A stretch of DNA of 64,000 nt from Minisyncoccota bacterium. Lineage in GTDB: Bacteria > Patescibacteriota > Minisyncoccia > Phycocordibacterales > UBA9973. Numbering within the stretch: position 1 is the first letter of the stretch; every line of letters starts with the position of its first letter. The position numbers were made by a program, and so were the translations under genes. The notes under the pieces are model-generated. The model made no database searches and was not told where the DNA came from. It saw nothing but the letters and a program-made list of their open reading frames with translations. Where the stretch lies: the NCBI GenBank assembly GCA_031972855.1, contig DALYDY010000001.1:128048-192047 (forward strand). The letters are read 5' to 3'. Positions 31,885 through 48,932 of this stretch are shown here, piece after piece.

Positions 31885-32649
31885 ATGGGAAATATCAAAA
31901 CACCAAAAATAATATACGAAGACGATCTCGTGCTGGTTATAGATAAACCGGCAGGTTTGATAGTTCATGCAGATGGCAAAAGAGAGCAAGAAACACTTGT
32001 TGATTGGTTGCTTGAAAATCGCCCAGAACTAAAAGATATTGGAGAACAAATGGTTGTAAAAAAAGATGGGGAAGACTTCATTATTCCAAGACCAGGTATT
32101 ATGCATCGTTTAGACAAAGAAACATCTGGTGTAATGATTATTGCAAAAACAGATGCAATGTTTAAGTTTTTAAAAAGACAATTTTTTGAACACACAATTA
32201 AGAAAACTTATCGCGCTTTTGTGTACGGACACTTATCAAACGATATTGGAATGATTGATGCTCCAATAGGAAGAAGTTCTACTGATATTCGTATGTGGAA
32301 TGCTGGACGTGGAGCTCGTGGTGAGAGAAGGGAAGCCAAGACTCGTTATAGAGTTCTTTCTCGTTTTATTGATCCAGAAAGCAATGAAAAAGTTAGTGAA
32401 ATTGAAGCATATCCTCAAACAGGGAGAACACATCAAATTCGTGTTCACTTTAAGTTTATAAATCATCCAATTGTCTCTGATTTCTTGTATTCCCAAAACA
32501 AACCAAAACTACTTGGTTTTGATAGGGTAGCATTACACGCCTATTCTCTAGAAGTGGCTTTTCCAGGGGGAGAAAGGAAGACTTTTAATGTAGAACCACC
32601 AGAAGATTTCAAAAAAGCTGAAGAACTTGCAAAAGCCCTAAAAATGTGA
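31885..32649 (+). CDS. RluA-family pseudouridine synthase
   Basis: HRLDKETSGVMIIAKTD catalytic-Asp motif, IVHADGKREQ; 254 aa. Confidence 0.8.
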   Translation: MGNIKTPKIIYEDDLVLVIDKPAGLIVHADGKREQETLVDWLLENRPELKDIGEQMVVKKDGEDFIIPRPGIMHRLDKETSGVMIIAKTDAMFKFLKRQFFEHTIKKTYRAFVYGHLSNDIGMIDAPIGRSSTDIRMWNAGRGARGERREAKTRYRVLSRFIDPESNEKVSEIEAYPQTGRTHQIRVHFKFINHPIVSDFLYSQNKPKLLGFDRVALHAYSLEVAFPGGERKTFNVEPPEDFKKAEELAKALKM

Positions 32650-32665
32650 TACATTCACTCTACTT

Positions 32666-33106
32666 ATGGCAACAGAAAATATTAGCTTTTCTCCTACAGT
32701 AAATGTAGAAGAACGCAAAAAAATCAATATAAAAGCAGGAGACACTGTTCGTGTTTGGAATAAAATCCAAGAAAAAGGAAAAACACGTCTACAGGCTTTC
32801 GAAGGACTAGTTCTTGCTCGCAAACACGGTACAGAAGCAGGTGCAACTTTTACAGTTCGCAAAGTTTCTAATGGTGTTGGTGTAGAACGTATTTTCCCTC
32901 TATATTCTCCAAGTATCGACAGAATAGAAATCTTGAAGAAATCAAGTGTTCGTCGTTCAAAACTATACTTTATTCGTGAAAAAGCTGTTAAGGAAGTTGC
33001 AAAACGTCTAAAAAGTGTGGTTGTTGCTTTTCAAAAAGGAAAACCTGTTGAAGAAGAATTGATTGAAGCAGAAACAGAAGAAAATACTTCAGAAAATGCA
33101 GAATAG
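32666..33106 (+). CDS. rplS: 50S ribosomal protein L19 (with C-terminal acidic extension)
   Basis: GDTVRVWNKIQEKGKTRLQAFEGLVLARKHG...TFTVRKVSNGVGVERIFPLYSP...RRSKLYFIR. Confidence 0.85.
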   Translation: MATENISFSPTVNVEERKKINIKAGDTVRVWNKIQEKGKTRLQAFEGLVLARKHGTEAGATFTVRKVSNGVGVERIFPLYSPSIDRIEILKKSSVRRSKLYFIREKAVKEVAKRLKSVVVAFQKGKPVEEELIEAETEENTSENAE

Positions 33107-35616: not shown

Positions 35617-35689
35617 GGGGATTATGGTGTAACGGTTAACACTGAGGTTTGTGGAACCTTCAATCTGGGTTCGATTCCCAGTAATCCCC
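35617..35689 (+). tRNA. tRNA-His (anticodon GTG) with encoded G(-1); no encoded CCA
   Basis: G(-1)-GGGATTA-TG-GTGT-AACGGTTA-ACAC-T-GAGGT-TTGTGGA-ACCTT-CAATC-TGGG-TTCGATT-CCCA-GTAATCCC-C. Confidence 0.85.
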
Positions 35690-37336
35690 CTTTTCAGGAG
35701 TTAATATAACGGAGTCAGGTAATTTGGTCTGGCGTATAGATACGTTCCGACCCCGACCCCTGACAGGACTTAATATAACTGAGTCATCCGTTGTAATAAT
35801 TCCTTTCTCAAAAGCTCGATCCTTTACCGGATCGGGCTTTTGCGTTGTGTTCCAAATAAGCGCGCCTGTTGCCTCAAGTCCTAACACGATTGGAGATTTA
35901 ATTGCCTCGACGATTAGCTTGTCCTCGGCTTTGAATTGGTCCCAGAAAAGCCCAAGGTACAGGCGTTTCAAATCGTCCGGTGCTTTCTGGTAGGTCTTGC
36001 CGATGTTCCGCATAAGGGCTAGTACGTCTTGGATTACATCAATCTTCAGGTTCTTTGTTTGGTCCAGTTTGTGCATTTCGTCCTCGACTCCATCAATCTG
36101 TTCTCGGTAGCGGACCTTTATTTTGGTGAACGCCGCATCGTCGATGATTCCGTTGATCAGCTTTTCTTCGGCGATCTCAAGTTTGCGCTCGAAGTTTATT
36201 TTTGATGTCATGAACTGTTTCTTTTGATTCCCGACATCGGATTTCTTTTCTTCGTAGATGTCCCGCATTTTCTTCACCACTTTATCTATGAAGTCGTCAG
36301 AGAATTGCAGTCCTTTGAATTTCTCTATGATCTGATTTTCTAAATCAAACACCTCGACGTATTTGTCGGTACATTTCTTTTGGTCATTGGACCGATTGCA
36401 GTGGTAGTACGCTTTCTTTTTCAAAGGGTGATATTCGGCCGTGTATCGTTGGCCGCACTTGTTACAAAATACAAATCCGCGCAGTAGAAAGTTATGCTTG
36501 TGCCGTCTGCATGCGTAGCGATTATTTTCCAGCATGACTCTCTGGCATTTATCAAAAAGCTCTTTGGTGATGATTGCCTCATGCTTGCCGATATCATTCA
36601 TCCCTCGCCACTCCATTCCGCCATAATAAAAAGGGCACTTGATTGTGCGAAACATTTTACTCATCGCCACTCGTTTACCCACGGTGCTGACCAGTCCTTT
36701 CTTGTAGAGCAGATCCCGAATCTCAATCAGGGAATAATCGCCGGTGCTATAGAGTTTGAATCCCTCGGCGATGAGTGGTGCGCGGATCGGGTCTGTCGTG
36801 ATGATTCTTTTCTTTTCGTCGTCGGGAGTTCCCGAGTTGAAGTATCCCATCGGTGCTTTCGTCGGCCACCATCCGTCCTTGTATTTTTGCTCCATGCTCT
36901 TGAGCGTCTTTCGGGAAGTGATCTGCGATTGCAGTTGGTTCACGCCGGCAATTATCAAGTCCATGAAGTTGCCCTCGGGCGTGTCCTCGAGTCCCGGTTG
37001 CGATACCGATATCAGTTCGACGTTGTGCTTTCGCAGGAGTGCCTTGATCGTAAGGTGGTCCCCGGCATTACGGGCGAGTCGGTCCGTATCTTGGACGAAG
37101 ATCGCGCCGATGCTCTTATCCTCTTGGATACGGATCAACATGTCTTGAAGTCCGGGGCGATTCATGTTGGTCGCGCTCTTGCCCGGGTCCTTGTAGACAC
37201 CGTCGTCGGCAAGCTTGAAGGTTTTCATATCTTCAATGCCGCGCTCGCAGAGGCGCAGTTGGGTTTTTAATGAGTGCCGTTCGTCACCGGCTTGTTCATC
37301 GGTGGAAACTCGGCAGTAAATGAGAGCTTTATTCAT
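35660..37336 (-). CDS. Large serine recombinase (resolvase/invertase catalytic domain + recombinase domain + zinc ribbon)
   Basis: N-terminal YCRVSTDEQ catalytic-Ser motif, resolvase-domain conserved Arg/Asp residues, central recombinase domain, C-terminal Cys cluster (CNKCGQ...HCNRS). Start taken at MNKALIYCRVS. The open frame continues antisense through the tRNA-His 3' end before the first stop. Confidence 0.8.
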   Translation of the reverse strand: MNKALIYCRVSTDEQAGDERHSLKTQLRLCERGIEDMKTFKLADDGVYKDPGKSATNMNRPGLQDMLIRIQEDKSIGAIFVQDTDRLARNAGDHLTIKALLRKHNVELISVSQPGLEDTPEGNFMDLIIAGVNQLQSQITSRKTLKSMEQKYKDGWWPTKAPMGYFNSGTPDDEKKRIITTDPIRAPLIAEGFKLYSTGDYSLIEIRDLLYKKGLVSTVGKRVAMSKMFRTIKCPFYYGGMEWRGMNDIGKHEAIITKELFDKCQRVMLENNRYACRRHKHNFLLRGFVFCNKCGQRYTAEYHPLKKKAYYHCNRSNDQKKCTDKYVEVFDLENQIIEKFKGLQFSDDFIDKVVKKMRDIYEEKKSDVGNQKKQFMTSKINFERKLEIAEEKLINGIIDDAAFTKIKVRYREQIDGVEDEMHKLDQTKNLKIDVIQDVLALMRNIGKTYQKAPDDLKRLYLGLFWDQFKAEDKLIVEAIKSPIVLGLEATGALIWNTTQKPDPVKDRAFEKGIITTDDSVILSPVRGRGRNVSIRQTKLPDSVILTPEKGDYWESNPD

Positions 37337-37509
37337 GGTAATTGTAATAGTTAGCTGATAAGGGCAATGCGACGACATTATGCTAGGAACACGGGATATA
37401 GCAATGGTGGGTTTTGTTTTTGTGTCGTATATGTGGTCATTTTTATCGTTTTTCACTACTGGCTTAACTGACGTTATTTTGAAATGGTCCTTATTTCATG
37501 GGCTATTAA

Positions 37510-39354: not shown

Positions 39355-40821
39355 TTGCAAGTGAAAAAGCCTATGAAAACAGAGCAAAAACAAAAAATCT
39401 TTGAATTTATACAGGACCAGATCGCAAATGCTGACTTTAGAATCAAGGCATACGTATTTGATGAGTCCGGGAAGAAGCGTCTCGGGCGTAACTGCTTTGT
39501 GAAGCTTGATATGCATGTACAGAACTTCCTACAAGGAAAATCTCCTATTCGATGGATAACCATGTATGGCTTACGTGGTGCCGGCAAAACTACCTTACTT
39601 GCTCAGTTGTATGAGCAGACGAAAATTGAGAGCAAAAGAAAATTATTTTTATCAGTGGATCAGGCGGTTGGAATTTTTGGAGTTAGTCTCAAAGATATTC
39701 TTGATGTCTACGAAGAATCGCTTGGTACATCCTTCGAACGTCTCACGGAACCAGTCTTCCTTTTTCTTGATGAGGTTCAATACGATGAGAAGTGGGCTCT
39801 ATTACTCAAAACGATTTATGATCGCAGTAGCAAGGTTTTTATTATTGCGACAGGTTCGTCTGCGCTTTCGCTACAAGCGAGTCCTGATGTTGCACGACGC
39901 GCAATTTTTGAAAAACTTTTCCCGATGAGCTTCACGGAATATATAAAGATTAAAAATCAAAAGACAGAAATTCGGGGACTTGCCAAGGAACTACGCGAGG
40001 CGATTTTTAATTCCAAAGATGCTAAAGAGGTTCACACACGTCTTAAGGGTTTGGAAGTAAAAGCTCGGCAGTATTGGTTAGATATAGAACGGAAAGAGAT
40101 TGATTCATATATGCAATATGGGACACTGCCTTTTATGATCGCTCTGAATAATGAGGCAATGGTCTACGATCAAATCAAGAAGACCCTTGAGCGTGTTATC
40201 AGTATTGATATTCCACATATAAATCAATTTTCAGCAGAGACTATATCCAAGATACCAATGGTGCTTTATGCACTTGCAGAAACGGACCAGTTGAGCTTGA
40301 GCAGTCTCGCTGATAAAGGCGAGCTTGATATTAGCCGTCCAGTGCTTACAGCCGTTCTCGAAACTCTGGAAAGAACAGAAACGATTTGGCGTATTTACCC
40401 TCATGGGTCGCATGTAACACAAACAACTCGTCAGCCATCAAAATATCTTTTTACGAGCCCAGCGTTTCGGTCCATGTATTTTAATTTTATAGGAAACACA
40501 AGGACCCACGATACCTATAAAGGGAAAATACTTGAAGATACTGTCGGTCTTTATCTTAATCGCATATTCTCGGGCAAGCCCGACACTTCCGTAACGTACG
40601 ACAGTGCCGCCGGCGGAGCTGATTTCATTATTCGTCAAAGTAAAGACATGATTGTATTGGAAGTCGGGTACGGCGATAAATCGTTTAGGCAAGTTGTAAC
40701 TACAATGGCAAAGGTCGGAGTAAATGCTCGATACGGCATAGTTGTGTCGCAAAGTCCGCTTGCCTTAGATGAAGAGAAAAATGCAGTAAGTATCCCACTC
40801 TCTTATTTTTTGTTGATGTAA
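39355..40821 (+). CDS. AAA+ superfamily ATPase (COG1373/DUF4143-type)
   Basis: Walker A GLRGAGKTTLLAQL, Walker B FLDEVQY, C-terminal DUF4143-like region; 488 aa. Confidence 0.65.
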   Translation: MQVKKPMKTEQKQKIFEFIQDQIANADFRIKAYVFDESGKKRLGRNCFVKLDMHVQNFLQGKSPIRWITMYGLRGAGKTTLLAQLYEQTKIESKRKLFLSVDQAVGIFGVSLKDILDVYEESLGTSFERLTEPVFLFLDEVQYDEKWALLLKTIYDRSSKVFIIATGSSALSLQASPDVARRAIFEKLFPMSFTEYIKIKNQKTEIRGLAKELREAIFNSKDAKEVHTRLKGLEVKARQYWLDIERKEIDSYMQYGTLPFMIALNNEAMVYDQIKKTLERVISIDIPHINQFSAETISKIPMVLYALAETDQLSLSSLADKGELDISRPVLTAVLETLERTETIWRIYPHGSHVTQTTRQPSKYLFTSPAFRSMYFNFIGNTRTHDTYKGKILEDTVGLYLNRIFSGKPDTSVTYDSAAGGADFIIRQSKDMIVLEVGYGDKSFRQVVTTMAKVGVNARYGIVVSQSPLALDEEKNAVSIPLSYFLLM

Positions 40822-41377: not shown

Positions 41378-42847
41378 ATGGGATGGATAATTTTCATTGG
41401 AATAGTTATTTACTTCATTTACAGCTCTTCAAAAAGCACAGGTACTTCAGCGTCTCCATCTAAGCCTCACTACTCGAAGCCTTATAGCAAGCCCGCAGTT
41501 GTTGTAAATAAAAAACTAAATGAGGATCAGTTACTTGTTGAAAAAATAACGCTTAGCGAAGAGCAGCAGACCCTGTTCGATAAAATCGAACATAGCACCG
41601 ATCACTTCTTCATTACAGGTAAGGCGGGGACCGGTAAGTCAGTGTTGTTGCAGTATTTGAAATTCAAATCAAAGAAACGCTTGGTTGTTGGTGCTTTTAC
41701 CGGAGTCGCTGCACTGAACGTAGGAGGCCAGACCTTGAATTCGTTATTCGAATTGCCGACGGGTTTCATAGATTTAAGTCGCTTAACAGTAAGCGGTCGA
41801 GTTTCCACTTTGATGAGGCACGTTGATACTGTCGTCATCGATGAGATATCTATGGTCCGGGCTGATATGATGGGTGCCATTGATGTAATTCTTCGACAGG
41901 CGCGCAAGAATGACGTTCCATTCGGCGGAGTTCAAATGGTCATGTTTGGGGACCTTTACCAATTACCTCCCGTTGTGGCCGACGAAGCACTGCATCAGTA
42001 TTTTGCCCATAATCATGGTGGTCCTTATTTTTTTAATGCTGATGTCTGGCAGAGAGCAACACTTCACACTTTCGAACTGAGTCATATTTTCCGTCAGCAG
42101 GATGATGAGGAATTCAAAGCTATTCTTAATTCAGTACGAAAAAATCAAATAGAAGATACTGTCCTTTCATCCTTGAATCAACGGCACGTTGACCAGGTAC
42201 CCACTGACGGAGTCGTTACGCTTGCAACTCGCAACGCTGTGGTTGATCGAATAAACAATGATCGCCTGGCTCGACTTGGCGGTGAGTTGTATGAATATCG
42301 CGCAGATGTTTCTGGGAATTTAGAACGATCTGCGTTTCCAGCTGAAGAATTCTTACGACTCAAAAAGGGTGCTCAGGTGATGCTCCTCAAAAATGATCCA
42401 GAGAAGCGATGGGTAAATGGTACGGTCGGTGTGGTTGAGTCGTTGTCATCGTCTGAAATAAAGGTCCGCATTAATGGCGAAATTATTTATTCGATCCCGC
42501 GAGCAACCTGGACCAAAATTCGCTATTTCTACGATACTGAAACAAGAAAAATCGAAGAGGAAGTTTTGAGCTCATTTACTCAATTCCCACTTCGCTTGGC
42601 ATGGGCGTTCACGATTCACAAATCCCAAGGTAAAACATACAATGCTGTCGTCGTAAATATGGAGGGAGGTGCTTTTGCTCACGGACAAACGTATGTTGCG
42701 CTCAGTCGTTGCACTTCTCTTAACGGACTATATCTGACCCAGCCTATCGAAAGAGATGATATAAAAGTTGATCCGGTCGTAGTCAGCTTTATGGAACAAA
42801 TTACATTAGAGACTATTAATCCTGATGTACAAACACAAATTATATGA
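41378..42847 (+). CDS. PIF1/RecD-family (SF1B) DNA helicase
   Basis: Walker A GKAGTGKSVLL, VVIDEISMV (Walker B), GDLYQLPPV (Pif1 motif III), C-terminal SF1 helicase motifs (AFTIHKSQG...YVALSR); N-terminal TM segment. Confidence 0.8.
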   Translation: MGWIIFIGIVIYFIYSSSKSTGTSASPSKPHYSKPYSKPAVVVNKKLNEDQLLVEKITLSEEQQTLFDKIEHSTDHFFITGKAGTGKSVLLQYLKFKSKKRLVVGAFTGVAALNVGGQTLNSLFELPTGFIDLSRLTVSGRVSTLMRHVDTVVIDEISMVRADMMGAIDVILRQARKNDVPFGGVQMVMFGDLYQLPPVVADEALHQYFAHNHGGPYFFNADVWQRATLHTFELSHIFRQQDDEEFKAILNSVRKNQIEDTVLSSLNQRHVDQVPTDGVVTLATRNAVVDRINNDRLARLGGELYEYRADVSGNLERSAFPAEEFLRLKKGAQVMLLKNDPEKRWVNGTVGVVESLSSSEIKVRINGEIIYSIPRATWTKIRYFYDTETRKIEEEVLSSFTQFPLRLAWAFTIHKSQGKTYNAVVVNMEGGAFAHGQTYVALSRCTSLNGLYLTQPIERDDIKVDPVVVSFMEQITLETINPDVQTQII

Positions 42848-44226
42848 AAAATAACATCTACCCAATTATCGGCATGAGTCCAGGCAATAGCTACTTCAAG
42901 GATGAAGAGATTAAATATCTTCTCAAGACCGCAGTAGACCGCTATGGAAAGGTTGCTGTGATGATTGCTGACATCCCTGCAATCTCGACATATGTCGCAC
43001 TCGGCTATCCTGAAAATCGTGCGCGGCGCGATAAGGCCCTGCCACAAGGAAATCTTTTGAAAAATAGAACTGAGCGGGCCGTCGTCCAACTCGGATACAC
43101 AAAGGATCAGGTAAGGATTATTGATTGGGAAAATGAAATAGAACCGAATGAAAATTACAAAAAGTCGTATAAGTATATTCGGCATCTTTATGAATCAAAC
43201 AAGCAATTTGAACATGATGCCGATGAGACAACTAAGGGTGTCGTCACTGGTTCAAAGAAAGAAATTAAAGATATAGATGTTGCGGTAAAAACTGCGGTCC
43301 ACTACTTGCTTTCAGAATTTGCTTTTCTTGATTTTGCACCCGGATTTTTAGGAGCTGAAAAAATCACCTATATTTATCACAAAAATTGGCCTGTGTATGA
43401 AAACTATATTGCAGGAAAGTATGACGGGAAATCAAAAGACCATGTCGATTTCCTACTCATGGAAAATCCATGGGAGACGTATCGTTCAGTGTGGGGTGAT
43501 GAGGATAATGAGAATGGAAGTTATACATCCGCCCTTGATCGTGTAGAAAAGACAAAGACGCTCCGTGTAGCTTTCACAAACTATCCACCCGCGTTATTTT
43601 ATAATCACGAAACCGATACTTTCTCGGGTATTTTCTATGAGATTATTACTGCAATAGCAGAAAAGCATGGTTGGCAGATTAAGTGGAGCGAAGAGACAGG
43701 ATATGGTGTTGTAATTGATGGATTGGACCATAATCGCTTTGATCTGTTTGGGAGCACTGTTTGGCCGACACCTGAGCGAAAAGAGAAAGCGTCTTTTTCA
43801 AAATCTATGTATACAAGCGAGGCATATCCATGGACGTTTCCAGGATTTGAGTATGAAAAGCTTAAAGATAGTCCTGATCTAAGGGTTGTGGTGAAAGAAA
43901 ACGATATCTCTCATTCGATTGCAATGGCTGATTTTCCAAAAGCACGACTGGTATTTGTACCGCAGCTTTCGGACCCTCAAGAATTGCTGCAATTTGTAGC
44001 TGACGGAAAAGGGGACGTGACGTTTGCAGAAATTAACCTTGTGGAAATTTTTATAAAAGCGAAACAAAAGAAATTGGTACAGGCAACAAGTAGTCCTATT
44101 CGCGTATATGAAAATACTTTTGTTTTCAAAAAAGACGATCCCTCATTAAAAAATCTTATTGATGAAGAAATCGTAGCCATGGTTGCTAGTGGTAAAATGG
44201 AAAAGTTGATAGAAAAATATCTTTAA
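42844..44226 (+). CDS. Two-domain protein: N-terminal cyclodipeptide synthase (CDPS, tRNA-dependent)-like domain fused to C-terminal family-3 solute-binding-protein (SBP_bac_3)-like domain
   Basis: N-terminal ~235 aa align motif-by-motif with YvmC/AlbC-type CDPSs: IIGMSPGNSYFKDEEI vs VGISPFNSRFSEDYI, VAVMIADIPAISTYVALG vs VSVLLAGHEAANLLEALG, AVHYLLSEFAFLDFAPGFLGAEKITYIYH vs [29 protein letters not shown] (catalytic Tyr/Glu positions conserved). C-terminal ~225 aa match amino-acid-binding SBP family 3: LRVAFTNYPPALFY...GIFYEIITAIAEKHGWQIKW...RFDLFGSTVWPTPERKEKASFSKSMY. ATGA start/stop overlap with the helicase gene. Confidence 0.65.
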   Translation: MKNNIYPIIGMSPGNSYFKDEEIKYLLKTAVDRYGKVAVMIADIPAISTYVALGYPENRARRDKALPQGNLLKNRTERAVVQLGYTKDQVRIIDWENEIEPNENYKKSYKYIRHLYESNKQFEHDADETTKGVVTGSKKEIKDIDVAVKTAVHYLLSEFAFLDFAPGFLGAEKITYIYHKNWPVYENYIAGKYDGKSKDHVDFLLMENPWETYRSVWGDEDNENGSYTSALDRVEKTKTLRVAFTNYPPALFYNHETDTFSGIFYEIITAIAEKHGWQIKWSEETGYGVVIDGLDHNRFDLFGSTVWPTPERKEKASFSKSMYTSEAYPWTFPGFEYEKLKDSPDLRVVVKENDISHSIAMADFPKARLVFVPQLSDPQELLQFVADGKGDVTFAEINLVEIFIKAKQKKLVQATSSPIRVYENTFVFKKDDPSLKNLIDEEIVAMVASGKMEKLIEKYL

Positions 44227-45944: not shown

Positions 45945-46083
45945 TTTTGAAAGAATTTTACCGCAACGTGCGATGCCGAGATGATTTTTTAGCGTTGTGC
46001 CATTCTGTGAGTTTGTCCATTCTCACTATATCTGCCAATTAAGGAAGCAGAGGAACCTATGCCTGTAGTATAGCACATATACA

Positions 46084-46112
46084 TTGACAAGTCAAGCACA
46101 ATATGCTATGAT
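46084..46112 (+). promoter_or_regulatory. Consensus sigma70-type promoter upstream of the DGR target gene
   Basis: ttgaca-17 nt-tatgat, ~75 nt upstream of the start codon. Confidence 0.5.
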
Positions 46113-46189
46113 TTAACCAGAATACAGTAAACCTCTCGCCGTCTTCGGTATAACGAGTAGAGGCTTCGTTCATTTAAATCTTAATTGTC

Positions 46190-46828
46190 ATGGCAAAATT
46201 TAATGTCACAGGCGACCAACACTTCGGCACCACAGGACAGGTGCTCGAAATTCAACGCCAAATCCGTCTTAAGGGCGGAAGTCCAATCGATCCCGAGCTC
46301 GTTGCTCTTGCACTTCAGGACATCATCGAAGGTAAGTTCAACCGCAGTAAGAAAGAGAATGCAATTCTCAAACTACTGTCGAAAGGCGAATCCATCATCA
46401 TTGATGCATGTGATGGGACCGAAACATTGGCAACTGCCAAAGAAACATTCAAATCTGGTATAGATGGAGACTTCAAGAACTGGGGTACCAACAAGCCGGG
46501 CGTTTCTACTGAAGACACCGCAGTACAGGTTCACGAAATGGTGAAGGACGCTACCTTTGCACAAATGTTCGGCTCCCTCGGGACCGATCTGGACAAGCTG
46601 TGTCTGACACAAGCCCAGATAAAGAACTTTTGCAAAAAGCATCCCAACTGGTTACGCAAAGACGGATATGCGACTTTCTTCCTGTTCAAGGTTGAAGATC
46701 AATTCTTCGTTGCTTTCGTGTACGTGTACTCTGACGGCTTGAACGTCTTCGTGTTCCGGTTCGGGTACGACTTCGTTTGGTTTGCCGAGTGCTCCCTTCG
46801 TCTGGTGGTTCCGCAACTGACCGCTTAG
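46190..46828 (+). CDS. DGR target (variable) protein; C-terminal variable region encoded by the VR
   Basis: The last ~40 codons coincide with the VR (46700-46820). The VR differs from the TR only at TR adenines, mostly in AAC codons. Confidence 0.8.
46700..46820 (+). repeat. DGR variable repeat (VR), 121 bp
   Basis: 121-bp alignment with the TR at 47131-47251: 19 mismatches, all at positions where the TR has A (AA->TT x5, AA->TG, A->T x5, A->G, A->C x2). Confidence 0.9.
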
Positions 46829-47130
46829 TACCTTGTTCTAATGACGCTTATTTTCTTAATCCCTTTGATTCTTCGGAATTGAAGGGATTTTTTTATTTTT
46901 GTATAATGATCGGGCAGTGGTGCAATATGTCGCGGTTACGGCTGCGGGATCACGATTGCTCAAAATCATCATCGAGAATTTTGCCGGCTACGGCTTTCAA
47001 AAGAGTGAAGATTTTTTTGAAATAAAAAAACTTTTCAGTTGGTGCGGTGTGCTTGCGGACTTCTAGGTCCCGAATAAAATACAGCACGGTCCCTGATGGA
47101 AACATGCTTGGATCGGCGGTGGTATAGACG

Positions 47131-47251
47131 GCACAGCGCACAATTCTTCGTTGCTAACGTGAACGTGAACTCTGACGGCTTGAACGTCAACGTGAACCGG
47201 TTCGAGAACGACAACGTTTGGAATGCCGAGAACTCCCATCGTCTGGTGGTT
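47131..47251 (+). repeat. DGR template repeat (TR), 121 bp
   Basis: Non-coding copy of the VR containing AAC-rich sequence (aacgtgaacgtgaac...); sits between the target gene and the RT. Confidence 0.9.
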
Positions 47252-47281
47252 CCGAAAATGATAGTTTTCTCCTCTCTGATT

Positions 47282-47626
47282 TTATTGTCCGAGAGGAGTT
47301 TTCTTTTCAAGCCCCTTTCTCCAACCGCCGAGCATTTTGCCTATCTCATCCAACTGTTCGGAGAGTATTGCATATTTGTCGTTCGGCAGGCATTTGTTCT
47401 CCCACGCCAACTGCAAAAAGAATTTCACCCCGTCGAGCTTTGATATTGAAATGGTGATACGGTTGATCTTCTGATCTCCCGACAGATAGAAGGAAACAAA
47501 AATGTTTTCCAACAGTTCTAAAAAATAGCAGTCTATCTTGCCACCGAGATTGTGGCGGTAGGTCTTGGGAAAATCGGCCAGTAACTTAAACCAGAGTGAG
47601 TACGATGCTTTTGCCTTTATGAGCAC
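47282..47626 (-). CDS. Accessory variability determinant (Avd)-like four-helix-bundle protein, encoded antisense to the TR and RT
   Basis: 114 aa; LWFKLLADFPKTYRHNLGGKIDCYFLELLENI... and C-terminal EIGKMLGGWRKGLEKK resemble the Avd family (compare the bAvd C-terminus VGRILGSWIARVNRKG). Confidence 0.6.
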   Translation of the reverse strand: MLIKAKASYSLWFKLLADFPKTYRHNLGGKIDCYFLELLENIFVSFYLSGDQKINRITISISKLDGVKFFLQLAWENKCLPNDKYAILSEQLDEIGKMLGGWRKGLEKKTPLGQ

Positions 47627-47680
47627 TGAAGGTGCTCGGGGGGGGTAGATTAATTGACATAGTAATTTTAATTAATATTT

Positions 47681-48697
47681 ATGAAAAAATTCGGTCGCTC
47701 TTACCAGAATATCATAACAGTCGAAAATTTGCTCCGCGCGTGGCAGGAATTTTTGTCTGGGAAAAAGAACCGCATCGATGTCGCCGCGTTCCAGAATCGG
47801 CTCATGAATAATATCTGCGATCTGCATCAGGAGCTTGCCGACAAGACCTACCGGCATGGTGCGTATCACGCATTCAACATTTCCGATCCGAAGCCGAGGA
47901 ACATTCACAAGGCTACGGTCCGGGACCGTCTGTTGCACCACTTACTTCACGCCGAAATGTATCCGCACTTCGATAAGAAATTCATTCACGACTCGTATTC
48001 CTGTCGCATCGGCAAAGGTACGCACAAAGCGATGGACCGCTTTCAGGATTTTGGCCGTATCGTTTCCAAAAACGACACTCGCGTATGTTGGGTTCTGAAA
48101 TGCGACATCAGAAAATTCTTTGCAAACATAGACCACGTGATTTTGAAAGATATCATTGCACGGCACATTGAAGATCGCGACTTGTTGGACTTGCTCGGGC
48201 ATATCATCGATAGTTTTTCGACACAGGGCAGGACGGATGTCGGTCTGCCACTCGGCAATCTCACCAGTCAGCTCTTGGTCAATGTCTACATGAACGAGTT
48301 CGATCATTTCATGAAGCGGACGCTCAAAGTTACCCATTACATTCGCTACGCTGATGACTTTGCCATTCTCTCCGAGGATCGGGACTATCTGGCGGACCTT
48401 ATTCCACAAATAGCCGAGTTTCTGGGGGATAGGCTGAAATTGTCCTTGCATCCCGACAAAGTGTTTGTGAAGACGCTTGGCTCGGGCGTTGATTTCTTGG
48501 GGTGGGTTCATTTCCCGCACCATCGGGTTTTGCGTACGGCCACGAAACGGCGGATGTTTGCCAATCCGGGCATTTACGCGGCCGACGAAGCGGTGGTGAA
48601 CTCATATCGCGGGTTGGTTTCTCATGGCAACGGGTGGAAGTTGGTTCGCACGATCGAGGCGGTTTCGGCGAAGGTGTCGTCGTCCGAAATCGGCTGA
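47681..48697 (+). CDS. DGR-type reverse transcriptase
   Basis: RT motifs including YADD (IRYADDFAILS) and the DGR-typical LPLGNLTSQ motif (SQ rather than the group II SP); 338 aa; immediately downstream of TR/avd. Confidence 0.85.
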   Translation: MKKFGRSYQNIITVENLLRAWQEFLSGKKNRIDVAAFQNRLMNNICDLHQELADKTYRHGAYHAFNISDPKPRNIHKATVRDRLLHHLLHAEMYPHFDKKFIHDSYSCRIGKGTHKAMDRFQDFGRIVSKNDTRVCWVLKCDIRKFFANIDHVILKDIIARHIEDRDLLDLLGHIIDSFSTQGRTDVGLPLGNLTSQLLVNVYMNEFDHFMKRTLKVTHYIRYADDFAILSEDRDYLADLIPQIAEFLGDRLKLSLHPDKVFVKTLGSGVDFLGWVHFPHHRVLRTATKRRMFANPGIYAADEAVVNSYRGLVSHGNGWKLVRTIEAVSAKVSSSEIG

Positions 48698-48888
48698 ACG
48701 TGGCCGTTGAAATTCTGGAGGGTGACAAACCCTCGGATGCCGTTTGAAGAGCTCACACAGGGCAAAATACGCGCGAATTATGCCAACTGTAATTCTTTCT
48801 TCTTGTCGGAAATCAGCCTTAGTTTCTCTCGTAAAATTTGCATATACCCCTCGTCGAGAAGTATAGTTAGAAGGTCATTCTGACTCTG

Positions 48889-48932
48889 CCCCAAAAGAGA
48901 AAAAGCCCATAAGGGCTTTTTCTCTTTTGGGG
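48889..48932. terminator. Long perfect palindrome (hairpin terminator) at the right end of the GC-rich island
   Basis: ccccaaaagagaaaaagccc-ataa-gggctttttctcttttgggg. Confidence 0.6.

Follow-up and report, generated by a model that had tools for sequence, protein, structure and literature searches.

A diversity-generating retroelement of a Minisyncoccota bacterium with a structured RNA domain 5' of its template repeat and a length-variable poly-C tract in avd

Introduction

The closest described counterparts of the locus reported here are the diversity-generating retroelements (DGRs) of the candidate phyla radiation (CPR). In two surveys, Wu et al. 2018 assigned 90% of their CPR DGR set to architecture B3, in which a template repeat (TR), the accessory gene avd, and the reverse transcriptase (RT) gene are arranged as TR-(avd)-RT, and left the CPR variable repeats (VRs) in unknown classes (PMC5758913), and Roux et al. 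2021 placed the CPR DGRs in cellular clade 2, described their targets as lacking recognisable domains, and expected new C-Lec variants (PMC8144416). Here we analyze a DGR in a 64,000-nt stretch of DNA (hereafter, the window) from a Minisyncoccota bacterium (GCA_031972855.1, contig DALYDY010000001.1, positions 128,048–192,047, forward strand). The locus is very probably a complete CPR/Patescibacteria-type DGR of the architecture TR-(avd)-RT, which diversifies about 30 C-terminal residues of a small protein that appears to be cytoplasmic.

The locus shares with the CPR DGRs of these surveys the gene order, the location of avd on the opposite strand, the host group, and a small target without recognised domains or membrane anchors. 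Like the window VR, the CPR VRs described there fall outside the CLec1-3 and Ig classes; such VRs were filed as 'UVR' classes. At the level described in the surveys, we found no difference; the 5' RNA domain and the avd poly-C tract presented below are not reported in their available parts. As a DGR, the locus is an ordinary new member of a known CPR type (architecture B3, clade 2), and it adds little in this respect because thousands of CPR DGRs with the same layout have already been catalogued. Its interest rests on two clade-wide features. To our knowledge, and within the literature searched, neither an RNA scaffold 5' of the TR nor a poly-C tract in avd has been described before.

The Bordetella BPP-1 DGR (mtd-avd-TR-brt, 8ub7) has much of its machinery in common with the locus: a homologous RT with the xGxxxSQ and YxDD motifs, Avd, adenine-specific variation at AAC codons, a VR at the 3' end of the target gene, and a GC-rich block resembling the initiation of mutagenic homing (IMH) sequence, followed by a hairpin. 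In BPP-1, however, avd is co-oriented and lies upstream of the TR, whereas it is antisense in the window. The structured 'Sp' RNA of BPP-1 is located 3' of the TR, whereas the window has a large structured RNA on the 5' side and a terminator hairpin only 7 nt after the TR. The target of BPP-1, which forms the tip of a phage tail fibre, clearly has a C-type-lectin fold; that of the window is a putatively cytoplasmic protein of 212 amino acids with a weak resemblance to this fold.

Two further groups of known elements are relevant. Weinberg et al. 2017 reported RT-9 (RF03080) and RT-10 as structured RNAs beside bacterial RT genes, RT-10 being found in the BPP-1 DGR (PMC5737381). Poly-G/C contingency loci are known from Campylobacter, Neisseria, and Bordetella, where they mostly switch surface structures or restriction systems (PMC1891110, PMC11868660).

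Results

Components of the cassette and the VR/TR pair

The core components are as follows (positions are those of the window).

46190–46828, + strand: target gene, 212 amino acids, with a predicted N-terminal helical hairpin followed by a compact beta1-alpha-alpha-beta2-5 domain
46700–46820, + strand: VR, target residues 171–211 of 212, with mutagenised positions 46715–46797 and an IMH-like block at 46799–46813
47141–47261, + strand: TR, 121 nt with 32 A, and an IMH*-like block at 47240–47254
47282–47660, − strand: avd, with an assembled open reading frame (ORF) at 47282–47626 (GTG start, 114 amino acids) and a conserved ATG at 47660–47658, eleven codons upstream
47681–48697, + strand: DGR RT gene, 338 amino acids, Pfam RVT_1
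48245–48271, 48347–48358, and 47891, + strand: RT motifs LPLGNLTSQ (residues 189–197), YADD (residues 223–226), and KPR, respectively

A first-pass annotation, made from the nucleotide sequence alone, had read this region as a DGR, and our analysis supports that reading in every core element, namely the VR/TR pair, the RT, Avd, and the target. The claim of a 121-bp repeat with 19 mismatches, all at TR adenines, was reproduced by a gapless re-alignment at an offset of 441 (19/19 mismatches on A; 15 A-to-T, 2 A-to-G, and 2 A-to-C). The hypergeometric probability of this pattern, given the 32 A among the 121 TR nucleotides, is 5e-14. The annotated position of the VR was correct, but that of the TR (47131–47251) was 10 nt too low; at the corresponding offset of 431, only 31 of 141 compared bases match, and offsets 425–439 yield no alignment. 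The TR is indeed rich in AAC, containing 9 AAC codons and 1 AAT codon, and the varied adenines occupy codon positions 1 or 2 only. The window contains only one VR-like copy.

Seventeen of the 19 mismatches are located inside the mutagenised zone, and the remaining two are found at 46814 and 46817, downstream of a 15-nt GC-rich block (CGTCTGGTGGTTCCG) that is identical in the VR (46799–46813) and the TR (47240–47254). Past this block, the two repeats diverge (CAACTGACC in the VR versus AAAATGATA in the TR). The last two mismatches affect Q209, which is nearly invariant, and L210, which is the family consensus residue, and therefore look like fixed differences between IMH and IMH*, not mutagenesis.

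The mutational spectrum of the window VR is extreme. Within the zone 46715–46797, 15 of the 17 changed adenines are replaced by T, so that nearly all variable sites encode Phe or Tyr. Across 27 related VRs, A-to-T makes up 27% of the pooled changes and A-to-G dominates; the binomial probability of the skew in the window is approximately 3e-7, uncorrected for the 29 loci aligned. Other loci are skewed in the opposite direction; in L021, for example, 17 of 22 changes are A-to-G. The VR spectra thus appear over-dispersed between loci, which selection or some property of the individual homing events could explain.

The best relative of the RT in the PDB is Bordetella bRT (8ub7, E 9e-37), in which IGSLTSQ aligns with LGNLTSQ and the corresponding motif aligns with KPR; group II intron and retron RTs score only about 1e-17. 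Motif 4 ([I/L/V]GxxxSQ) and YxDD, which are features of the DGR clade, are both present, the assignment being made by motifs and solved relatives. The DGR-type RT annotated from LPLGNLTSQ and YADD is therefore neither of the group II intron nor of the retron type. Its homologs in CPR number in the thousands. The protein annotated as Avd-like was confirmed by Pfam PF22296 (bAvd), which it matches with 49.1 bits (cut-off 40).

Recurrence of the cassette and transfer of information from TR to VR

We compared the window with 80 genome loci that contain target homologs and with 80 further loci fetched independently via Avd homology; all of the comparative data are metagenome assemblies. The cassette target(+)-TR(+)-avd(−)-RT(+) recurs in about 35 of the 80 target-homolog loci, with a VR-to-TR spacing of 425–496 nt, and all related complete loci have this gene order, as expected for architecture B3. 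About half of the target homologs in the 80 loci are orphans with no RT within 6 kb. Nearly all VR/TR pairs show adenine-only mismatches, and about 40 of the 80 loci combine this pattern with the layout of the window.

Several of these relatives demonstrate the direction of information flow. The TR of L008 carries six substitutions relative to the window, each of which has its counterpart in the VR of that locus, and the TR substitutions of L009 are likewise mirrored. Since non-adenine changes of the TR reappear in the cognate VR, information flows from TR to VR in the relatives. The TRs of the window and L084 differ at 1 of 121 positions, and their VRs differ at 19, 17 of which are TR adenines. 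L166 and L167, two assemblies from a relative whose Avd shows 87% identity, agree at every position of 3342 nt apart from seven VR sites at TR adenines and one poly-C base. The mirrored TR changes, the constant TRs, and the VR turnover between L166 and L167 led us to conclude that the clade is active, and the DGR of this particular genome would be expected to be active as well.

Some variations were seen among the relatives. In L035, L039, and L070, two adjacent targets are present, and both VRs match a single TR with adenine-only mismatches; the window has one target. L070 (DATJQC010000114.1) is binned as Nanoarchaeia (DPANN archaea) and contains the same cassette with 18 adenine-only mismatches for each of the two targets, which reflects either cross-domain transfer or a binning error. 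Targeting in trans is not supported for L073 and L027, as no match was seen between their TRs and the orphan paralogs (L075 and L074) that share their metagenome-assembled genomes (MAGs). In two near-identical elements, L083 (5643–5707) and L085 (position 1), similarity to the window begins only within the VR, at positions 46756 and 46803 of the window, respectively. For L085 this point is a contig end, and in L083 it borders on unrelated DNA; the hypervariable VR may be a place where assemblies are broken or chimeric.

A structured RNA domain 5' of the TR

The region between the target gene and the TR contains the following elements, which continue beyond the TR.

46879–46907, + strand: promoter-like site for the TR RNA, TTGAAG-17-TATAAT, with the −10 box at 46902–46907
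46914–47140, + strand: structured 5' RNA domain, 227 nt, nine helices, directly 5' of the TR
46914–22/46951–59 and 46927–36/46941–50, + strand: helices H1 and H2, the latter with a GGUUACGGCU loop
46961–73/47007–19 and 46979–86/46995–47002, + strand: helices H3 and H4
47043–53/47130–40 and 47057–60/47067–70, + strand: helices H6 and H7
within 47084–47117, + strand: helices H8 and H9
47269–47308, + strand: putative terminator hairpin of the TR RNA, CTCCTCTC (47269–76) pairing with GAGAGGAG (47291–98), followed by the U-tract TTTTCTTTTC

The 310 nt from the target stop codon to the TR are conserved to the same degree as the TR itself. The TATAAT −10 box is conserved in nearly all aligned loci and is located 7 nt upstream of helix H1. 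RNAalifold analysis of 29 loci yielded 59 pairs, 49 of which show compensatory changes. In this alignment, 93.8% of the cells are paired versus 43–52% in slid controls, and none of 500 shuffles reached the observed value. A covariance model (R1) built from helices H1–H5 matched 51 of the 80 Avd-fetched loci, always antisense to avd and about 250 nt beyond the avd stop codon. In this independent set, 92.1% of the cells are paired, and compensatory changes are found in 32 of 35 pairs. Helices predicted inside the TR show mostly one-sided changes, with compensatory changes at a minority of the pairs.

No Rfam family reached its gathering score in the window or in 16 relatives, and 19 further relatives gave no match at E<=0.1. 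RT-9 (RF03080), whose first hairpin has the same GGUUACGGCU loop as H2, was tried as the family and rejected: the window scores 19.1 bits (E 1.3–2.9) versus a gathering score of 46.1, and the 16 and 19 relatives gave no match. The RNA of the window, with its 227 nt and nine helices, is larger than RT-9.

The hairpin at 47269–47308 is located 7 nt past the TR and straddles the avd stop codon. It is present in 29 of 29 aligned loci, displays compensatory changes in its inner stem, and was recovered by the minimum-free-energy fold. With the −10 box, the 5' domain, and this hairpin and its U-tract, the TR RNA thus resembles a separate transcript of its own, about 390 nt long. In DGRs of this kind, the analysis by Handa et al. 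covered no more than 40 nt on the 5' side and 100 nt on the 3' side of the TR, and the 3' hairpin sits where they put the 'Avd-binding stem-loop' (bioRxiv 10.1101/2023.10.23.563531); by this analogy, it may bind Avd. H6 finishes at the base immediately preceding the TR. From its position, H6 probably plays the role of the Bordetella 'stop duplex', halting complementary DNA (cDNA) synthesis at the start of the TR.

A length-variable poly-C tract at the 5' end of avd

The first-pass annotation overlooked that a poly-C tract shifts the natural start codon of avd, as assembled, into a different frame from the rest of the gene. Two elements are located at this place.

47638–47645: homopolymer, G8 on the + strand and C8 in the avd mRNA, codons 6–8
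47621–47637: hairpin adjoining the tract, GAGCAC-N5-GTGCTC

The C8 tract displaces the conserved ATG by one base from the frame of the Avd body. That this ATG is the natural start is indicated by L083 (98% identical), whose C7 tract leaves avd in frame and whose product is called as 125 amino acids from the same ATG, and by the tract-less L086 (84% identical), which begins MNISSTLRTPTVL from an ATG at −11. In general, the long Avd homologs open with M-x(3-6)-PP(P)R-x-P-x-VL. In several loci, the Avd frame lacks any ATG, GTG, or TTG between 12 codons upstream and 20 codons downstream of the first aligned Avd residue, leaving the out-of-frame upstream ATG as the sole candidate start.

Apart from the avd tract, no G/C run in the 64-kb window reaches a length of 7. 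Tracts of at least six C occur in 75 of the 104 avd loci that could be evaluated (about 72%; 71 of 99 avd clusters), with a mode of 9–10 and a range of 6–14. When one representative was taken per 95%-identity cluster, 10–13 were in frame, 24 needed +1, and 12 needed +2; 18 representatives had no ATG within 33 nt. The cluster to which the window belongs contains tract lengths of 7, 8, 11, and 11. Among the closest database homologs of Avd, about half are N-terminally short, and one allele is known both as 126 and as 113 amino acids. This allele occurs on five contigs from five samples, which are 97–99.8% identical and have C11, C10, C11, C7, and C12 with identical flanks; only the C12 form is in frame. 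Thus, the length of a homopolymer in the 5' coding region differs between otherwise identical strains and shifts the reading frame, as in phase-variable genes.

Such a length-variable tract is the signature of a contingency tract. Known contingency loci likewise have a G/C homopolymer of 7–12 nt near the 5' coding end, whose length changes shift the frame between otherwise identical strains. Unlike in those loci, the gene putatively switched here is an accessory factor of a targeted mutagenesis machine. The tract probably gates the production of full-length Avd, and hence mutagenesis. As C8 leaves avd of the window out of frame, the element would be 'off' or would use an N-terminally shortened Avd initiated at GTG. 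We found no paper linking a DGR or Avd to homopolymers, phase variation, or slipped-strand events, and a prior description in Paul et al. 2017 is possible.

The target protein

Members of the target family number at least 589, have about equal lengths, and are found in Patescibacteria-type MAGs. In the family alignment, the hypervariable columns are exactly those templated by the AAC/AAT codons of the TR (VAxVxVxSxGLxVxVxRFxxDxVWxAExxxR). The variable residues alternate along a beta-hairpin (strands 171–180 and 183–190) in the predicted model. The N-terminal region of about 60 residues is occupied by at least two unrelated modules, one of which begins with MRTKTLEQNTAQDF, on the same C-terminal domain of about 150 residues, suggesting domain shuffling ahead of the variable scaffold.

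The 212-residue ORF annotated earlier is real, and no hydrophobic N-terminal stretch was read from its sequence, consistent with the annotated lack of a signal peptide and with a small cytoplasmic protein. Searches of Pfam, NCBIfam, and PADLOC returned nothing for the target, nor did a profile search of the PDB; an exact-protein look-up showed that the sequence of the window's target is not on record. The C-type-lectin-like fold that had been expected at the C-terminus is only weakly supported (the comparison class being the DGR variable proteins with this fold, i.e., Mtd, TvpA (2y3c), and the archaeal protein of Handa et al. 2016); Foldseek searches against PDB and BFVD gave no match.

Flanking elements and genomic context

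Three further elements are found at the borders of the target gene and the cassette.

46084–46112, + strand: promoter-like site of the target gene, TTGACA-17-TATGAT with TG extension, 11/12 in a consensus scan
46858–46889, + strand: putative terminator hairpin of the target gene from a terminator scan, 14 bp with a TTCG loop, followed by a T-run
48889–48932, + strand: perfect 20-bp inverted repeat after the RT gene, a likely terminator and the right edge of the conserved cassette

The promoter-like site, which would serve the target gene, falls within a block (46079–46164) conserved with relatives. The hairpin at 46858–46889 has a column identity of 0.6–0.8 over the 29 loci and corresponds to the inverted repeat located 3' of the IMH in other DGRs; it may have a role in homing, by analogy with the Bordetella work cited in PMC5758913. 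Homology to L083, L084, L085, and L009 stops at 48892–48894.

A GC-rich stretch (0.40–0.49 versus about 0.30 in the flanks) extends from tRNA-His (35618–35690) to about 48.9 kb. A large serine recombinase gene (Resolvase, Recombinase, and Zn_ribbon_recom; region 35618–37456) ends within the 3' end of tRNA-His, and this junction marks the left edge of an island of 10–13 kb. The island contains an AAA_14/DUF4143 ATPase, a PIF1 helicase, a cyclodipeptide synthase fused to a solute-binding domain, and a nicotinamide mononucleotide (NMN) transporter. A copy of the tRNA-His 3' end was sought as an att repeat at the far side of the island, and only one 12-mer was found outside the tRNA, which is compatible with chance.

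The claim that the DGR is carried on the integrated element was not supported, and three observations argue against it. In L001 (4022–5147), the same upstream genes and tRNA-His are followed after about 270 nt by the target (87% identical over 46116–46899), with no recombinase island, TR, avd, or RT. Elsewhere, the cassette occurs in unrelated contexts: as a 2.8-kb unit (46079–48892) beside a transposase and a Fic gene in L084, and flanked by the genes for a pseudouridine synthase and ribosomal L19 in L166–L170. The cassette therefore appears to be mobile or frequently relocated. In the window, an RluA-type pseudouridine synthase-like ORF (31885–32649) adjoins an L19-like ORF (32666–33106), both assigned by eye from the translations.

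Three side observations concern this region. The VR of L001 differs from the TR of the window mainly at adenines (18 of 23 differences). The ATPase gene at 39355–40821 matches the PADLOC candidate defence family PDC-S01 (E 3e-27). The ORF at 42844–44226, beside the NMN-transporter-like gene in the GC-rich island, encodes the cyclodipeptide synthase (PF16715, residues 8–193) fused to a family-3 solute-binding-protein domain (PF00497, residues 241–460).

Discussion

For the large CPR clade of DGRs as a whole, we tentatively propose that targeted hypermutation is itself under the stochastic control of the avd poly-C tract and proceeds from a stand-alone RNA of about 390 nt that departs from the Bordetella paradigm in having a protein-binding 5' scaffold, in which H6 acts as the cDNA stop; we consider this broader model plausible, though short of probable. 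For the locus itself, we regard the following reading as very probable. A discrete non-coding RNA, comprising the 227-nt 5' domain, the 121-nt TR, and the terminator hairpin, would be transcribed from its own promoter (−10 box at 46902). The RT, together with Avd, would copy the TR into cDNA with misincorporation opposite adenines, and the cDNA would replace the VR up to the GC-rich IMH-like block. One face of the target beta-hairpin and the following loop would thereby be rewritten. If H6 is the stop duplex, the RNA scaffold would lie 5' of the template instead of 3'. Changes in tract length would switch Avd in and out of frame and thereby gate mutagenesis.

Several observations weigh against the reading of the locus. 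The assembled avd is frameshifted relative to its natural ATG, and its product scores 56.9 bits against NCBIfam DivGenRetAVD (NF033474), under the equivalog cut-off of 80. Homopolymer lengths in metagenome assemblies can err by one base, and the frame counts are as compatible with ribosomal or transcriptional slippage as with switching at the DNA level. No covarying helix joining the 5' domain to the 3' flank of the TR was found in the alignment. The evidence for activity is indirect for this genome, which is represented by a single assembled VR.

These points leave room for other explanations. The loss of frame with the conserved ATG could be an ordinary disabling mutation in a recently inactivated relic with a frozen VR. 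A single assembled VR represents this genome, and its unusual spectrum (15 of 17 A-to-T) could reflect one old event. However, no damage is seen in the RT, the TR, the RNA domain, or the hairpins, and the GTG-initiated ORF spans positions 14–106 of the 107-position Pfam bAvd profile. Furthermore, out-of-frame states are in the majority in the relatives, including strains with recently turned-over VRs (L166 versus L167), which fits a reversible switch better than decay; we therefore regard a relic as improbable. It might also be argued that the differences in tract length are sequencing or assembly artefacts, since long G/C homopolymers are error-prone and the data are all from metagenomes, and that the tract merely encodes Pro-Pro-Pro in a constitutive Avd, as the tract-less sister clade encodes RPP at the same place. 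Nevertheless, lengths of 7, 10, 11, 11, and 12 occur in contigs with identical flanks from five ENA analysis accessions, a spread that exceeds the usual one-base error. Proline codons consisting only of C are used at about 75 loci in genomes of 30–45% GC, and most of the 99 G/C runs of at least 7 in 1.09 Mb are the avd tract (about 74 loci with that length). The all-C codons in low-GC genomes and the concentration of such runs at the tract point to selection for the homopolymer itself, and we do not expect an artefact to be the answer.

The tract could instead act at the level of RNA or the ribosome, through +1 frameshifting at CCC-C or transcriptional slippage, and set a low constitutive level of Avd in place of an on/off switch. 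CCC-C is a classical +1 slippery site for tRNA-Pro, a hairpin adjoins the tract, and the state needing +1 is the commonest (24 of about 50 classified clusters). On the other hand, in-frame and +2-needing alleles are also common, and length polymorphism at the DNA level is directly seen between near-clonal contigs. Programmed +1 frameshifting was rejected as the sole explanation: 10 of the first 16 loci needed +1, but all three frames are common in the larger set. We consider slippage in place of switching to be unlikely, though a possibility to be taken seriously; the two are not mutually exclusive, and slippage may contribute. Finally, the best partial match of the RT in NCBIfam is a group II intron RT model (147.6 bits versus a cut-off of 300), which might suggest a retron, group II intron, or defence RT beside an unrelated duplication. 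This score is far under the cut-off, bRT leads the solved relatives by 20 orders of magnitude, Avd is adjacent, and the adenine-only pattern (P 5e-14) recurs in about 40 loci. The VR/TR alignment, the bRT match, and the recurrence in relatives refute a non-DGR RT, and we give that reading practically no credence.

If avd is switched by its poly-C tract as we propose, only a subpopulation would diversify the target at any time. The tract suggests that a targeted mutator is switchable by a simple-sequence mutator, which bears on how the cost of self-mutagenesis may be limited. The 5' RNA domain provides a concrete model for the assembly of RT, Avd, and RNA in DGRs with an antisense avd, which account for about 90% of the CPR DGRs according to Wu et al. 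The target family is a candidate for a new scaffold tolerating massive variation, and it raises the question of the role that an intracellular variable binder may play in an ultra-small symbiont.

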